Origin: a virus
Lineage: Duplodnaviria; Heunggongvirae; Uroviricota; Caudoviricetes
Strand: one strand, 5' to 3'
IMG/VR virus record: IMGVR_UViG_2617270956_000008
Coordinates: 1 to 48,241 of that record
DNA length: 48,241 bases
How positions within the stretch are numbered: position 1 is the stretch's first letter; each line of letters begins with the position of its first letter. The notes beneath the pieces are model-generated. The model searched no databases. It had not been told where the DNA came from and worked only from the letters and a program-made list of their open reading frames with translations. Position numbers and translations under genes: made by a program. This document shows positions 30,230-45,357 of the stretch, piece after piece.

Positions 30230-30838
30230 CTATAAAATGTGCTCTAGAATCCGCATATTTCCTTCAAAAAGTATTTCCTTTTTTAACGGATCAACTATTT
30301 CACCACTCCAATATTTATGAGCTTTTTCTAAGGCAATATCATACGGTATATCGTCATTCATCAAATGTTCATCACTCGCCTCATGTATAACTCCATCCAA
30401 CTCAACTCTGAACACAGTCTGATTGTCCCCCAATCCCAACTGCGAAATCCAATAGTGAAGACTTTCTTCACCTTGTGAAACCCATAAGCATTTCTGTCTT
30501 GAAGGCTTTTTTGGGTAATATTCAACTCGAACGGCTTCCCAAATCAGTTCTCTAGTATATTTACAAAAATGCATAGCCAATTCTTGACCAACTGCCGCTA
30601 TATCCTGTACAGAACACTTAGTAGTAAGTGACCCTGTCTTTAGGCCATAAAGCCACTGCATTCTCGTATAGTCAGTTAGATGCCCGTTAACATTTACTGG
30701 TATTGGAGGGATGTTTGAACTTAAGAAATAATTAAAAAAGGGATTTGGGAATGAGGTGCTAGCTAAATCTCCTACTGCCAAAGGCCTATACTTAACCCAA
30801 GGATTTTGCGATTTAGTTGCTATGTAAAAATAGTCCAT
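30230..30838 (-). CDS. hypothetical protein (202 aa), AT-rich moron downstream of lysis cassette
   Basis: ORF in AT-rich DNA between Rz and HNH; preceded by two 12-bp direct repeats (CTTACCACTATA on the plus strand at 30844-30855 and 30866-30877). Confidence 0.55.
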   Translation of the reverse strand: MDYFYIATKSQNPWVKYRPLAVGDLASTSFPNPFFNYFLSSNIPPIPVNVNGHLTDYTRMQWLYGLKTGSLTTKCSVQDIAAVGQELAMHFCKYTRELIWEAVRVEYYPKKPSRQKCLWVSQGEESLHYWISQLGLGDNQTVFRVELDGVIHEASDEHLMNDDIPYDIALEKAHKYWSGEIVDPLKKEILFEGNMRILEHIL

Positions 30839-31887: not shown

Positions 31888-32223
31888 TTACTCCTTAGAG
31901 CCACTAAACTTATTACCGATTACTCGCATTGCAGCTCCACGAATGGCATCAACACCGATCAGCCCAACGCCACCACCAATGGCAACAGAAAGCGATTTAG
32001 GCCATCCGACATACTCAAGCGCGGATGCAAAAGTCAGCGTCAGAGCACCACAGAGCAAAATCTCGAGCGTTTTTCGCTTCCAGCCACCACCTCCGCCAAA
32101 ATAGGCGATACGCAAACCAGCCATAACGATCGACATAATCACTGCCCCCAGCGGGGTGTCTCCACGCCACCAGCTCTGGAACAACTCCAGCCAGTCCGGC
32201 CAAGTATTTGGGTTATGAGGCAT
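31888..32223 (-). CDS. putative holin, 111 aa
   Basis: Immediately upstream of the endolysin; hydrophobic segments and a charged C-terminus. Confidence 0.6.
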   Translation of the reverse strand: MPHNPNTWPDWLELFQSWWRGDTPLGAVIMSIVMAGLRIAYFGGGGGWKRKTLEILLCGALTLTFASALEYVGWPKSLSVAIGGGVGLIGVDAIRGAAMRVIGNKFSGSKE

Positions 32224-32319
32224 TTGTAGTTATCTCTCACCTGCGATTATTTGCGGGTGCTGTGTTGGAAATAAAAAGGCCACCCGAAGGCAGCCTGATT
32301 TAATTATTCACATTAATCG

Positions 32320-33711
32320 TCACTTAATAGGATTTGGTTTTATGTCGTCAAGCCAGTCGTTATCACCTCTTAGCTTGGCTACTCGTCCTTCAACATTAGT
32401 TAACGGTTTATAAGCAGAGTATTTGCCTATAGCCCTAGCAGAATGCTCTCCAGCAACACGATAATTTTGGAAGTCCAACTCAAGTCCATGCTGCTCCGCT
32501 CTCATTCGAATATAACCACGAAGCATGTTTTCTCTAAATCGAAACCAAGATGGACGATTCCCTAAAGCAGGGATGATGATGCATCCAAATGTCGGTTTCT
32601 TCAATGCATTGAACTTTCGCTCAAACGTGGATTTATCTAAAGGTGTTACATCAAGCGATTTGCAAATTTTAACGTACGATTCTGATATATGAGTCTTATG
32701 TCTGGTCAAATCAGCCATATCGGACATAGCCCAAAGAATATGCTTATATGACTCATCACGTCCCTCTGTTGCATCCGTGTAACTTTGCCTTAAAGTTTCC
32801 GAGACTGAATCAATTGCATCATTTAACCCTTTAATGAAAAGGTTGTAATCAACAGAGCTGTATTCACGTATTGAGCTTTGACATGTTAAAAGGATTTTTT
32901 CACAAATAAGATGAATGTAGTTCGGGAACCCGTCACTAAGACCCGCAATTTTATAGCGGACAGAATCATCGACAGTCAGGCCAAACTCATCGAAAGCATT
33001 ATCAATTATTTGAAAACGACCATTCCATGGTAAACTATCGAGATGTACCTGATGTATTTGTCGCTCACTTGATTTATGCCCTCCGATTAAAGTAACGAGA
33101 GAATCACCAATCCCCGTAAAAATTAATTTTACTTCACACGCCTGATCACCAAGTTGTTTAATGAGTGATCCAAACTTTTGTCGTTCTTCATCAGAGTCAA
33201 TTTGGTCAAACTCATCGATAACTATATAAGGAATCTTTGAGTGAACTTTAGTTAAAAATTGCAACGCCCGAACGGCTGCAGAAACTGAGTCAATTTTCAG
33301 TTCTGGATAATTATATTTTTGATTTTGACCAGCATTGATACCACCAATTCCAGCCACATTTAAGCCAAAGCTCCATCCCTGTGTATCGATTTTCTTATCC
33401 TGAGGTGTGCCTCGCAAAATAATGTCATTCATGACACTTGAAAAAGTGGATTCTTTCTCGCAGCCAACCAAAATAGGTTCAGCATCTTCCTGCAGCTTAA
33501 AAGCAACAGTTTGCGCTAAGGATGTCTTTCCTACTCCGCGATCACCATAAATGAAAGCATGCCGACCTGTAGCATAAAGCGCCAATTCGAGATCGGTTAC
33601 ATGTTTTTCACGTCCAAATAACAGTTCCATAGAAACAACTGGACCCGTTGGTCGCAAAACTTTATGCAGTTTATGCATAAAGTCTCGCAAAGAAAGACCT
33701 CCACAGAGCAT
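32320..33711 (-). CDS. P-loop NTPase (AAA/ORC-like ATPase) of unknown function, 463 aa, moron
   Basis: ATG with AGGAG SD; Walker A GDRGVGKTS and Walker B YIVIDEFD; LFGRE motif before Walker A; AT-rich (sampled blocks about 35-42 percent GC); between Q-like gene and holin. Confidence 0.7.
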   Translation of the reverse strand: MLCGGLSLRDFMHKLHKVLRPTGPVVSMELLFGREKHVTDLELALYATGRHAFIYGDRGVGKTSLAQTVAFKLQEDAEPILVGCEKESTFSSVMNDIILRGTPQDKKIDTQGWSFGLNVAGIGGINAGQNQKYNYPELKIDSVSAAVRALQFLTKVHSKIPYIVIDEFDQIDSDEERQKFGSLIKQLGDQACEVKLIFTGIGDSLVTLIGGHKSSERQIHQVHLDSLPWNGRFQIIDNAFDEFGLTVDDSVRYKIAGLSDGFPNYIHLICEKILLTCQSSIREYSSVDYNLFIKGLNDAIDSVSETLRQSYTDATEGRDESYKHILWAMSDMADLTRHKTHISESYVKICKSLDVTPLDKSTFERKFNALKKPTFGCIIIPALGNRPSWFRFRENMLRGYIRMRAEQHGLELDFQNYRVAGEHSARAIGKYSAYKPLTNVEGRVAKLRGDNDWLDDIKPNPIK

Positions 33712-33772
33712 TTTTATTCTCCTGCATTTTTTTCGAAAACTATAACATCATTCTTTTTGGCAAGCCTTTCCT

Positions 33773-33799
33773 AAACGCAAAAACCCGCACAATGGCGGG
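33773..33799 (-). terminator. rho-independent terminator (tR'-like) downstream of Q-like gene
   Basis: Minus strand: CCCGCCATTGTGCGGG hairpin followed by TTTTTGCGTTT. Confidence 0.6.
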
Positions 33800-33850
33800 T
33801 TCTTACTATTATGTTGCTCAGTTCGCTTTTCGTCCCGAGCTTATCACAAT

Positions 33851-34429
33851 TCAAGCACTTTCTTGCTCACTTTGCAATTTAAATCTGTCGCTATTTGTGC
33901 CAAACGCATCACATAGTGGAGCGTACAGGAGCGATTCGGCCAAACTTATCCATGTGTCAACTCGGCGGCGACAGGTAATGAGCGCCCAGTCAGGATGTTT
34001 AATATGAAGCTCATTGGCCATTTGCAACTTGCTCTTACGCAGACGATACCGGCCAACAATCACACCGTATAGAGAACGGTAATCATTATTCATCAGCACC
34101 GAGGCGATCACACCGTCAATCTTCAGGCCTTCATCGTCCGAGCAAAACGCCAGACTACTTTTGTTTTTACTGTTGAGTATTTCGCGCAAATAAGCTTCGA
34201 GCTCTGGTTTCGTAATGCCTGACTTTTTCATACGGCGCAGCGCATCGTTGATTGCAGTTTTGGTAATTTTGCTGGATACAAGCAGTTGGTTAAACATGTT
34301 ACCGCTAGTCCCTCCACTGATATAAGACCAACGCCCCCACATGCGGAGCTTCCCCTGAACCCAGATACTTTCCAGAGTACGAAGACGAACCATTTCACCC
34401 GTTTTGCCAATTTCAGAAGGATTAATCAT
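33851..34429 (-). CDS. putative late-gene antiterminator (Q-like), 192 aa
   Basis: Position immediately upstream of the tR'-like terminator and lysis region, after the DUF968-like gene as in Qin-type prophages; similarity is weak, so the call rests mainly on synteny. Confidence 0.45.
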   Translation of the reverse strand: MINPSEIGKTGEMVRLRTLESIWVQGKLRMWGRWSYISGGTSGNMFNQLLVSSKITKTAINDALRRMKKSGITKPELEAYLREILNSKNKSSLAFCSDDEGLKIDGVIASVLMNNDYRSLYGVIVGRYRLRKSKLQMANELHIKHPDWALITCRRRVDTWISLAESLLYAPLCDAFGTNSDRFKLQSEQESA

Positions 34430-36263: not shown

Positions 36264-36419
36264 TTACTCCTCAGGTTCGTAAGCTGTGAAGACAGCGACC
36301 TCCGTCTGGCCGGTTCGGATTCGTACCTCGCAGAGGTCTTTCCTCGTTACCAGTGCCGTCACTATGACGGTTAAACAGATGACGATCAGGGCGATTAACA
36401 TCGCCTTTTGCTGCTTCAT
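36264..36419 (-). CDS. hokD: Hok/Gef-family type I toxin (HokD/RelF-like), 51 aa
   Basis: MKQQKAMLIALIVICLTVIVTALVTRKDLCEVRIRTGQTEVAVFTAYEPEE matches HokD/RelF as recalled; AAGGAG SD 9 nt upstream of the internal ATG. Confidence 0.85.
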   Translation of the reverse strand: MKQQKAMLIALIVICLTVIVTALVTRKDLCEVRIRTGQTEVAVFTAYEPEE

Positions 36420-36630
36420 AGCCTGCTTCTCCTTGCCTTTCGGCACGTAAGAGGCTAACCTACGTTTGTGAAGCATAGATTGGGCCTCAGATTAATGTTA
36501 AACGTCTTGCAGGACGCGTAATGTTAACTGGGGCTTTTCTCTATCTGCCGTTGGTGTTCATGCCCGAGGCAGATAGCCTCAAGCACCCGCAGCAATTCTA
36601 CTTAACTCACGTCACCTCGCCAATATAAAA

Positions 36631-44267: not shown

Positions 44268-44325
44268 TTTCTGGTGACGTTTGGCGGTATCAGTTCTACT
44301 CCGTGACTGCTCTGCCGCCCTTTTT
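44268..44325 (+). ncRNA. dicF: DicF small regulatory RNA
   Basis: TTTCTGGTGACGTTTGGCGGTATCAGTTCTACTCCGTGACTGCTCTGCCGCCCTTTTT nearly matches DicF as recalled; GGCGG/CCGCC terminator stem plus T-run. Confidence 0.8.
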
Positions 44326-44799
44326 AAAGTGAATTTTGTGATGCGGTGAATGCGGCTAAGCGCACGCGGAACAGTTAAAACCAAAAACAGTGTTATGGGT
44401 GGATTCTCTGTATCCGGCGTTAATTGTTAACTGGTTAACGTCACCTGGAGGCACCAGGCACCGCATCAACAAAGTTCACTTCGGTGATGAAAGGTAGAGA
44501 AAATGTTGAATGTAGCTATTGAAAACCAGAACGGGTGGAATTATAGTGCACCAGCACCTCATAAAACGGGTGCCGGGCGTGGAAACCCGAAATCATTCAC
44601 GGCGCATAACCGCGCTCAGGCGGTTTTTTTATGCGTTAAGCACAGCCACATTCGCATTATGGTGGGGCGTGCAGGGCAGCCGCAAGGCTGGCCGGGTTCC
44701 GTGATGACCGGTATTTCCACCCCTGTACGTCTCACCACCCTTATGGTCGTGGAAAACCTCGGTGGTGAGTTAATCAAATTCATCGCGGAGGCTGCCATC

Positions 44800-45357
44800 A
44801 TGGCTACTATCCTTACCCTTTCTCACCCTGACGTAACCATCGAAAATGGTCGCGCTGTCACTACGTCTGTTGCGATCGCCGAGTTCTTTGGCAAACGCCA
44901 CGAACGAGTGTTGGATAAAATTCACAATCTGGACTGTTCAGCAAAATTCACTGAGCACAATTTTGTGTTGAGCGAATACACCGACTCAACCGGGCGCAAA
45001 CTCCCAATGTACCAAATCACCAAAAACGGCTTCGTTTTCCTGGTGATGGGGTTCACAGGTAAAAAAGCCGCAACTTTCAAAGAAGCCTACATCGCTGAGT
45101 TCGATCGCATGGAGGAAGAACTGCGCCAGAATAACGCCCCGTCTCCCGACAAAATGATTCACGGGGACGGACGCACCCTGGTTATCCGTCTCGACGAACA
45201 CGGCAATATCAAATTCACTGAAACCGTTCCTGACGGCGCAATGGTCTGCACCCTGGATACCTTCCGGTTTTATCTGGAGAAACAAGGATGGACTCTTGTA
45301 AACCGGAGCGCAATTAAAAATATGACTGTGGAGCAATTGCTAAAAATTCATTGTTGA
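44800..45357 (+). CDS. Rha-family phage regulatory protein (possible antirepressor), 185 aa
   Basis: ATG with GGAGG SD 8 nt upstream; Rha-type motif RAVTTSVAIAEFFGKRHERVLDKIHNLD. The track ORF starts at 44503, but its N-terminal 99 aa look non-coding. Confidence 0.6.
   Translation: MATILTLSHPDVTIENGRAVTTSVAIAEFFGKRHERVLDKIHNLDCSAKFTEHNFVLSEYTDSTGRKLPMYQITKNGFVFLVMGFTGKKAATFKEAYIAEFDRMEEELRQNNAPSPDKMIHGDGRTLVIRLDEHGNIKFTETVPDGAMVCTLDTFRFYLEKQGWTLVNRSAIKNMTVEQLLKIHC

Follow-up and report, generated by a model that had tools for sequence, protein, structure and literature searches.

A stand-alone AAA+ ATPase in the antiterminator-to-holin slot of an Escherichia coli prophage: a candidate single-gene defence

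Known ATPase defences and AAA+ switches

The Salmonella prophage Gifsy-1 encodes GiPD474, a single-gene ATPase defence whose cloned gene protects against T4, FO1, and Alf5 (PMC12724215), and by analogy it is a precedent for a single prophage ATPase gene serving as a complete defence system. Here, we describe another ATPase gene, from an Escherichia coli prophage contained in a 48,241-nt stretch of Caudoviricetes DNA (IMG/VR record IMGVR_UViG_2617270956_000008, positions 1 to 48,241), which we refer to as the window. The gene lies on the minus strand between a Q-like late antiterminator gene and the holin gene and encodes a stand-alone AAA+ protein of 463 amino acids. The comparisons given below lend good support to the view that the gene is self-contained, mobile cargo, complete in one gene and shared by prophages, plasmids, and islands, and that it specifies an effector-less AAA+ protein with a basic winged helix; we regard it as a well-founded candidate for a prophage-borne, effector-less, Orc1/Cdc6-like, single-gene defence. 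In our judgement the chances are about even that the ATPase serves as a single-gene exclusion factor against competing phages or other mobile DNA, acting as an ATP-driven, oligomerising, nucleic-acid-binding switch. Most known ATPase-based defences pair the ATPase with a nuclease, an NADase, or a partner protein; if the present ATPase protects, it would constitute a compact, 1.5-kb, single-gene system without a recognisable enzymatic effector.

Like GiPD474, the ATPase is the product of one prophage gene and joins a P-loop ATPase to an uncharacterised extra domain without an obvious effector, whereas GiPD474 is a ParA/MinD-type protein of about 360 aa (Walker A GGVGKT, AAA_31) that is encoded in the immunity region (PMC12724215). 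No ParA, MinD, or AAA_31 match was found in the ATPase, so that it belongs to an unrelated ATPase class and a GiPD474-like identity was rejected. The closest known structures are those of the archaeal "Walker-type" AAA+ ATPases PABY2304 and SSO1545 (PDB 2qen and 2fna; ATPase_2, PF01637/COG1672), with about 15% identity. Their solved chains comprise 350 and 352 residues, the ATPase being about 100 residues longer, and they are likewise without known function; however, they are archaeal, whereas the ATPase family is bacterial and resides on mobile elements. From genes for Orc1/Cdc6 initiators, the ATPase gene differs in being accessory, horizontally mobile, and without a link to an origin, and where the initiators have a conserved helix pair as an insert, the insert of the ATPase is disordered and hypervariable. 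Overall, the ATPase appears to work most like the AAA+ switches of the Orc1/Cdc6 and ATPase_2 kinds, though it falls under the curated thresholds of both.

Antiviral STANDs (Avs, bNACHT, and NLR-like proteins) resemble the ATPase in their core of nucleotide-binding domain (NBD), helical domain (HD), and winged-helix domain (WHD) and in their homes in prophages and defence islands, but they carry an effector domain and a repeat sensor, both of which are missing from the ATPase at less than half their usual length. A survey by Lee et al. (2026; PMC12803255) describes prophage-encoded STAND clades with defence roles. BrxC/PglY of BREX, mad8 of MADS, and TnsC/MuB act only with partner genes, whereas the ATPase has no conserved neighbour. 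MADS consists of eight genes (mad1-8), of which mad6, mad7, and mad8 are mandatory. Membership of the ATPase in MADS was rejected: mad8 is its best PADLOC match (2.2e-4; family-wide best, 8e-8), but the match covers residues 46-79 only, no conserved neighbours were found in 85 loci, and the flanking genes are Q and the holin. Membership in the TnsC/TniB/MuB group was rejected as well, there being no conserved adjacent transposase and a TniB hidden Markov model (HMM) match in only 4 of 54 family members.

The cassette in the antiterminator-to-holin slot

The Q-to-S slot of lambdoid phages is a site of morons, e.g., stx in Stx phages, nmpC in DLP12, and csp genes in Qin. As is generally known of such morons, they combine this insertion site with deviant GC content, signals of their own, and pR' read-through after Q, as does the ATPase gene; their cargo is a toxin, a porin, or a cold-shock protein, whereas here it is a cytoplasmic AAA+ ATPase. 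In order of transcription, the slot contains the following features.

33851-34429, minus strand: Q-like late antiterminator gene of the DUF1133 type (Pfam, PHROG), the upstream edge of the cargo slot
33773-33806, minus strand: tR'-like intrinsic terminator right after Q, AACCCGC-CATTGT-GCGGGTT followed by a U-run
33739-33747, minus strand: extended -10 element TGTTATAGT, putative promoter of the cassette, 36 nt ahead of the ATG
33719-33723, minus strand: Shine-Dalgarno sequence AGGAG, 7 nt from the ATG, with GGAG kept in Enterobacter copies
32320-33711, minus strand: gene for the stand-alone AAA+ ATPase, ATG start, 463 aa (RefSeq WP_021562676.1, "ATP-binding protein"; PHROG 6841, function unassigned there)
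32269-32296, minus strand: the ATPase gene's own intrinsic terminator in the ATPase-holin gap, AGGCTGCC-TTCG-GGTGGCCT followed by TTTTTATTT
31888-32223, minus strand: holin S gene, lambda family (Pfam Phage_holin_3_1, 2.6e-27; PHROG 126), the downstream edge of the cargo slot

A preliminary description of the window had placed the gene between a Q-like gene with a tR'-like terminator and the holin, and Pfam and PHROG matches, together with RNA folding, agree with that position; the end it gave, 33850, simply takes in the 139-nt Q-to-ATPase spacer. The Q-like gene matched Pfam DUF1133 (5.3e-89) and Phage_antitermQ (2.9e-8) and PHROG 753, "anti-termination protein Q-like" (2e-66), and beyond the holin lie, in order, a GH24 endolysin, Rz, an HNH protein, and terminase. 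The tR'-like hairpin (33801-33782 plus the U-run) folds at -19.7 kcal/mol (z -5.2), with none of 200 shuffled sequences equally stable, and a hairpin of this type also stands behind DUF1133-type Q genes in three other loci (L017, L101, and L102). The AT-richness that had been noted relative to flanking phage genes was likewise recovered: the ATPase open reading frame (ORF) has 39.8% GC (31% at third codon positions, GC3), compared with 46-59% for flanking genes overall, e.g., holin 52.7%, Q 46.3%, DUF968 54.1%, and terL 53.7% (GC3 64%). Within the prophage part of the window (10001-48241), only 1.1% of 1392-bp windows are equally AT-rich. The ATPase gene is foreign to the E. coli prophage that carries it.

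Comparison of the gene with a 92%-identical Enterobacter copy gave a dN of 0.056 with synonymous sites saturated. Since saturation is reached even at 92% protein identity, a dN/dS test for diversifying selection reduces to statements about overall purifying selection and relative dN. Considering the low dN against saturated synonymous sites, the gene is real and selected, and it is under strong purifying selection overall.

The cassette also has signals of its own. Its terminator folds at -13.1 kcal/mol (z -2.9), and every one of the six close homologs retains the hairpin and T-run; just past this terminator, similarity to the Enterobacter copy stops. The motif TGnTAnnnT is found at -36/-37 in five of the six close homologs, across three unrelated upstream sequence contexts, and in a more distant, 44%-identical clade a perfect TATAAT stands at about -38. 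An Rfam scan of the cassette returned no RNA family. Among the hallmarks of a moron, insertion between conserved flanks that are found with and without it, deviant composition, and an own terminator were all found, the promoter being represented by the conserved extended -10 motif. With its promoter-like element, Shine-Dalgarno sequence, ORF, and terminator, the cassette has the anatomy of a textbook moron, its promoter activity being predicted from sequence. Because of its own conserved extended -10 element and terminator, expression of the ATPase is probably not confined to the late operon but takes place in the lysogen too. The preliminary description was right about a strong Shine-Dalgarno sequence and had the gene transcribed with the late operon; the latter stands in so far as read-through by Q-modified polymerase is proposed after induction, but would not be the sole source of transcript, given the cassette's own extended -10 element and terminator.

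Of 5426 complete E. coli genomes, 56 have the gene, each in one copy on the chromosome. Fifty-three of these copies are 100% identical and several of the carriers are labelled ST131, so the E. coli distribution is for the most part that of a single prophage in one successful lineage. Members of the same 90%-identity cluster occur in Salmonella, Klebsiella oxytoca, and Citrobacter. The preliminary description had proposed comparing related prophages for variable cargo, and the slot indeed varies: related E. coli prophages that share the DUF968, Q, and holin neighbours carry in it either a TIR-domain protein on the opposite strand or hypothetical proteins of 67, 111, or 198 aa. The TIR protein has 271 aa and is encoded at 2181-2996 of locus L014 (E. 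coli E700025, NZ_CM128597.1). Six close homologs (76-92% identity), from six prophages, all lie between antiterminator and holin, and these copies differ in their holins (3_1; 8 plus 3_7; 3_3), endolysins (GH24, GH108, GH19, and M15), and terminases. Since the flanking holins, endolysins, and terminases differ, the cassette moves between unrelated late regions. With the ATPase in some prophages and a TIR protein in others, the antiterminator-to-holin slot (the Stx position) is documented as a hotspot that swaps defence-type cargo.

This distribution also bears on a conserved phage late function, which the preliminary description had set against its own view and which might lie in lysis control or packaging. 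The gene does sit in the late transcription unit, directly ahead of the lysis cassette. However, besides its restriction to 56 of 5426 E. coli genomes, it is missing from near-identical slots of related prophages, has no homologs among 50,697 phage records other than two in actinophages, and occurs on plasmids and non-phage islands, so that such a function is excluded by the distribution for all practical purposes.

Fold, motifs, and variable surfaces of the protein

The preliminary description could not place the protein in a characterised defence family and recommended HMM and structure searches; none of PADLOC, NCBIfam, or the specific Pfam families lays claim to it, and the searches returned only generic AAA+/P-loop and ATPase_2- or Orc1/Cdc6-like matches. 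The ATPase matched Pfam AAA_16 at 39.8 bits (cut-off 32.6), AAA_22 at 30.1 (27), and AAA at 22.5 (21.2), and it contains both signatures of a P-loop NTPase (Walker A GxxxxGK[ST] and Walker B hhhhDE). Pfam ATPase_2 (PF01637) gave 24.7 bits, under its gathering threshold of 33.2, so that the protein is not a curated member; the same model matched 52 of 54 relatives at E<=1e-3 (best 3.9e-11). The NCBIfam Orc1/Cdc6 model TIGR02928 scored 35.6 bits against a cut-off of 181, over residues 29-115 only, which leaves the protein outside that family as curated. PHROG assignment was to phrog_6841 (6e-103), in a library without a curated cut-off. Across PADLOC v2.0.0, NCBIfam release 20, and Pfam, the ATPase and its 54 relatives gave only generic AAA/P-loop or sub-threshold matches, and no PADLOC Avs or NLR model matched the ATPase or its aligned relatives.

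Searching the PDB with the family profile returned P-loop-level matches alone (ArsA, Clp, and Cdc6), a search with the C-terminal 177 residues alone returned nothing at E<=10, and the viral structure library yielded clamp-loader and RFC-type AAA+ proteins only, with no informative phage protein. The structural matches were, best first, the archaeal ATPases 2qen (18.7) and 2fna (18.5), followed by Orc2 and Cdc6 (15.9 and 14.9), TnsC (14.8), BrxC (14.1), and MuB (13.9). Foldseek matches included Cdc6/ORC, RFC, and the NBD-HD-WHD cores of ZAR1/NRC, Apaf-1, and CED-4; those to Apaf-1, CED-4, and ZAR1/NRC extended over about 410-450 alignment columns at a TM-score of only 0.31-0.44. The ATPase belongs to the AAA_16/ATPase_2 (Orc1/Cdc6- and STAND-like) branch of AAA+.

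An alignment of 54 family members served as the basis of an AlphaFold2 model of the ATPase (pLDDT 83.9, pTM 0.78). The elements discussed below are encoded as follows.

33520-33546, minus strand: Walker A motif GDRGVGKTS, residues 56-64; G56, R58, G59, G61, K62, and S64 invariant in 54 sequences
33208-33231, minus strand: Walker B motif YIVIDEFD, residues 161-168; D166, E167, and F168 invariant in 54 sequences
33232-33441, minus strand: hypervariable insert between strands beta2 and beta3, residues 91-160, at the topological position of the initiator-specific motif (ISM) of Orc1/Cdc6, to which it may be equivalent
32482-32706, minus strand: winged-helix domain and next helix, residues 336-410, strongly basic

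The 463-aa NTPase with these two Walker motifs, as first described, is thus upheld by the ORF and the alignment, and the large C-terminal domain mentioned there is resolved by the model into a lid, a helical linker, and a basic winged helix. In the modelled order, a short N-terminal helix is followed by the AAA+ core (about residues 30-225), which 30 residues precede, a helical lid (229-280), the helical linker, a canonical winged helix (321-392), one further helix, and a disordered tail. Residues invariant besides the Walker motifs are H212, S214, R217, R232, G261, P263, H267, Y311, W327, R337, Y346, E394, R398, and G399. R217 stands at the end of the helix before beta5 and, judging from this position, may be the trans-acting arginine of classical AAA+ proteins. 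The winged-helix segment has a net charge of +9 (family median, +7), the remaining segments being neutral or acidic.

Variability peaks in the beta2-beta3 insert (91-160), the lid end (271-285), the helices of the winged helix (346-375), and the tail, and this pattern is the same family-wide and among close relatives, with dN 3-5 times that of the core. The insert has an entropy of about 3 bits, 60-80% of its positions vary among copies at least 71% identical, and its residues 107-134 are disordered in the model (pLDDT <50). Orc1/Cdc6 proteins contact DNA through two elements, an insertion at the beta2-beta3 position and the winged helix, and we infer that the insert and winged helix of the ATPase are their equivalents; DNA binding and oligomerisation are likewise predicted from the model. 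The disordered tail (window 32320-32470, about residues 415-463) contains a motif, Y-(K/R/Q)-P-L-(T/S)-x-(V/I)-E, in gammaproteobacterial members only, which is predicted as a lone helix (439-448) and could be a docking or autoinhibitory peptide.

These features suggest a mechanism for exclusion that we put forward tentatively, namely that the ATPase is an ATP-dependent, oligomerising binder of nucleic acid or nucleoprotein, of the Orc1/Cdc6, TnsC, MuB, and BrxC kind, whose variable insert and winged helix set its specificity and which occludes an invader's replication, packaging, or transcription and does not destroy it. The cassette would have been inserted horizontally into the antiterminator-to-holin slot of a lambdoid-type E. 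coli prophage, where it would be self-expressed in the lysogen, with Q-modified polymerase reading through it after induction. The insert and winged helix would pick out the target, a nucleic acid or nucleoprotein of foreign origin, ATP binding would lead to oligomerisation via R217, and the resulting assembly would sterically block the invader's replication, packaging, or transcription. A different mechanism, in which the ATPase triggers the neighbouring lysis cassette as its effector, was rejected as a general one, since homologs on plasmids, an integrative and conjugative element (ICE), and islands have no lysis genes nearby.

The same fold raises the alternative of a minimal STAND-type sensor that binds a phage protein, oligomerises, and kills or arrests the cell (abortive infection) by runaway ATP hydrolysis, sequestration of phage proteins, or recruitment of a host effector. 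The Foldseek matches to the Apaf-1, CED-4, and ZAR1/NRC cores point in this direction, as do weak family-wide matches to nSTAND1 (51 of 54 members, best 1.7e-9), nSTAND6 (19), nSTAND3 (17), and NACHT (14), the location on mobile elements and in defence islands, and the lid motif SDGFPxYxH (G261, P263, and H267 invariant), which we take to stand where STANDs have their GxP motif. However, the ATPase has neither a C-terminal repeat sensor nor an N-terminal effector, since after the lid only the winged helix and a disordered tail remain, and at 463 aa it is far below the typical length of an Avs or bNACHT protein. Its nSTAND1 score of 22.4 bits is under the Pfam cut-off of 27.1, its best structural matches are ATPase_2 and Orc/Cdc6 and not NLRs, and the invariant R217 is at the position of the classical AAA+ trans-acting finger, which would usually be missing in STANDs. 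On balance, a STAND-type sensor seems to us unlikely.

The ATPase family may nevertheless coincide with prophage-encoded STAND clades 260 and 534, which Brenes and Laub reportedly validated in 2025. No ECOR-named strain is among the 56 E. coli carriers, ECOR strains being, we presume, those tied to that study, and WP_021562676.1 was found neither in the literature searched nor in the text of the DefensePredictor supplements, one file of which was covered in part; both argue weakly against the family having been tested already, and so, weakly, do its generic database names.

Relatives on mobile elements and further cargo of the window

Beyond the close copies, relatives of the ATPase occupy diverse mobile elements. 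A Vibrio parahaemolyticus homolog (48% identity) lies in a variable stretch between DUF968 and lysis genes, and one from Edwardsiella ictaluri (53%) is near an integrase and co-directional with cI and HipA_2/DUF3037. The two actinophage homologs, gp30 of Mycobacteriophage Kevin1 and gp34 of Gordonia phage Cashline, match the family profile over their full length (3e-48 and 5e-46). In Kevin1, gp30 is an orpham and lies in the central variable region of cluster N, beside the repressor, the integrase, and a HicB-like gene, and the Kevin1 genome announcement flagged this region as a site in which to seek prophage-mediated defence genes. Yersinia pestis CO92 carries on plasmid pMT1 a full-length homolog with 44% identity (WP_002211751.1; L097 7001-8392, NC_003134.1 66212-67603), located 385 bp past parAB and ahead of a leading region with an orphan methylase and ArdA. 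Yersinia accounts for 63 of 80 plasmid matches; homologs are found on IncF plasmids too, and a Pectobacterium ICE also carries one.

A Pseudomonas homolog is part of an integrase island and adjoins Gabija GajA/GajB and a DEAD helicase. On this contig (SRR5192052_82; L012 1-6642), GajA is an OLD-TOPRIM protein and GajB a UvrD protein, and the DEAD/ResIII helicase, of 833 aa, has an uncharacterised partner of 327 aa. When one genome per species was scanned, 185,579 species yielded 346 relatives, distributed patchily over Gamma-, Beta-, and Alphaproteobacteria, Acidobacteriota, and others, and a profile search of 1.84 billion representatives yielded 958 clusters (50% identity) at E<=1e-30. The best 150 matches of the latter search, all about 410-470 aa, included no informative domain fusions.

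ORF calling and all-against-all clustering of the six neighbours on either side at 85 loci identified no conserved partner gene; the commonest neighbour, a serine recombinase, was present at 14 of the 85 loci, in variable position. Since no partner is conserved, the ATPase is a single-gene unit. The three nearest neighbours on either side were also scanned with HMMs, separately for the gammaproteobacterial half and the other half, with matches listed by family and not per protein. In the gammaproteobacterial half, mobile-element neighbours (integrases, DUF968, Q, RusA, and ANT/Rha) were accompanied by defence-type ones (GajA, PDC-S28, Ppl, ZorD-like, DpdE-like, and McrBC). In the other half (140 proteins from 31 loci, E<=1e-15), the neighbours included restriction-modification genes (type IIG, type II, type IV REase, and Mrr) and the named defence genes PtuA plus PtuB (Septu), NsnA, ThsB, PD-T4-2, PD-T4-7, and several PDC candidates, with Mrr_cat, MmeI, AAA_15/AAA_21, NA-iREase1, and resolvases as further Pfam-type matches. 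Defence systems usually make up roughly 1% of genes, and the share of defence genes around the homologs appears far above this background; because the scan gives families and not per-protein counts, the enrichment is a qualitative one. The association with defence genes, whose absence the preliminary description would have counted against its view, is present, in the form of adjoining Gabija, Septu, restriction-modification, Mrr, NsnA, ThsB, and PD-T4 systems.

Because its relatives reside on prophages, on plasmids, and in defence islands, the ATPase is a credible anti-phage or anti-plasmid candidate, and we find it rather probable that it acts in inter-element conflict, shielding its carrier and host from other phages and mobile DNA. 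Several observations weigh against its being an exclusion factor expressed in the lysogen. No defence HMM of PADLOC or NCBIfam matches the ATPase beyond its P-loop, and neither sequence libraries nor the model showed a nuclease, TIR, protease, or other effector in it, so that an effector-less mechanism must be postulated. The putative promoter is one 9-nt motif only, and a two-hexamer promoter scan gave 5 matches against 5.8 expected by chance and did not pick up the extended -10 element. All six close copies lie in the leader of the late operon, which could mean a role in lytic growth and not in the lysogen, and the pMT1 copy, with parAB on one side and the anti-restriction leading region on the other, would be just as well explained by plasmid maintenance or counter-defence. 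The enrichment of defence genes is a qualitative one, expressed in families, DNA binding and oligomerisation are predicted from fold and charge, and database names are all generic ("ATP-binding protein," "AAA family ATPase," and "DNA-binding protein"), with no member of known phenotype.

Some of these points would suit a role in the carrier's own lytic cycle or transfer, i.e., counter-defence or competition, such as the remodelling or blocking of a host defence complex or of co-induced rival prophages or satellites. The late operon in whose leader the six close copies lie is Q-dependent, the pMT1 copy stands beside a region with ArdA and an orphan methylase, and one related prophage has an Acb2/Tad1-like anti-defence gene in a neighbouring slot. 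However, to judge from its promoter-like element and strong terminator, the cassette may well be expressed independently of the late operon, other homologs run in the same direction as repressor and integrase, and still others lie in chromosomal islands with Gabija, Septu, and restriction-modification, where counter-defence is unexpected. Known anti-defence proteins are, moreover, mostly small and expressed early. We therefore consider such a role quite unlikely.

A non-conflict function has also to be weighed, in which the ATPase would be a DNA-binding AAA+ regulator or maintenance factor: an Orc1/Cdc6-like accessory of replication or partition, a target selector like TnsC, MuB, or TniB, or a LAL/MalT-type transcription regulator that alters host expression. 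Orc1/Cdc6, TnsC, and MuB are among its top structural matches, its winged helix is basic, homologs adjoin parAB on pMT1 and rep on an IncF plasmid, and serine recombinases and integrases are frequent neighbours. In spite of this, no transposase, origin, or partition gene is conserved alongside at the 85 loci, the prophage in the window has DnaT-like and P-type replication genes of its own, the ATPase gene is accessory within a prophage lineage, and the Orc1/Cdc6 and TniB models fit poorly (35.6 vs. 181 bits and 4 of 54 members, as given above). A regulator or maintenance factor is, in our view, very unlikely.

Extended to all relatives, the exclusion reading would make the family a widespread but so far unnamed kind of immunity that needs no effector: an AAA+ "clamp" resembling Orc1/Cdc6 would sense phage or plasmid DNA or nucleoprotein by its diversifying insert and winged helix, polymerise with ATP, and bring replication or packaging to a halt with neither cleavage, modification, nor cell death. 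The family's carriers include temperate phages of both Proteobacteria and Actinobacteria, ICEs, and Y. pestis pMT1. We hold this wider proposal to be rather unlikely; if it is true, non-destructive, DNA-occluding immunity becomes directly testable, and interest in the family would grow considerably if non-enzymatic DNA occlusion were demonstrated. The concentration of variability in two surface elements could be exploited to map specificity and to re-program it. With members in prophages of ST131 E. coli, Salmonella, Klebsiella, and Citrobacter, in actinophages, and on pMT1, so broad a family may shape the outcome of phage therapy and the traffic of plasmids and prophages in pathogens.

Elsewhere in the window, a second AT-rich moron (30230-30838, minus strand; 37.9% GC, GC3 32.5%) is flanked by Rz and the HNH/terminase genes and encodes a 202-aa DUF2441 protein (PHROG 9842, function unassigned there) with no PADLOC match; related prophages have, at this position behind the lysis genes, DUF6979, a GrlR-family regulator, DUF6236, or an Acb2/Tad1-hairpin (anti-CBASS/Thoeris-type) protein. 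At 36264-36588 on the minus strand is a type I toxin-antitoxin, hok/sok, with Rfam sok at 36414-36588 (113 bits) and a Hok-like ORF of 70 aa at 36264-36476 (minus strand; hokD in RefSeq). The first 10,000 nt of the window, beyond the tail-fibre gene, are very AT-rich (31-44% GC) and look like a separate cargo or island region; they encode an H-NS paralog (5759-6163) and DUF4756, DUF6404, DUF6387, RepL-like, and HHH_3 proteins, without PADLOC matches. Three consecutive small RNAs are found on the plus strand, DicF (44269-44320), isrK (44554-44630), and C4 antisense RNA (44655-44742), the latter two inside the 5' part of an Ash/Rha-family gene (44503-45357).

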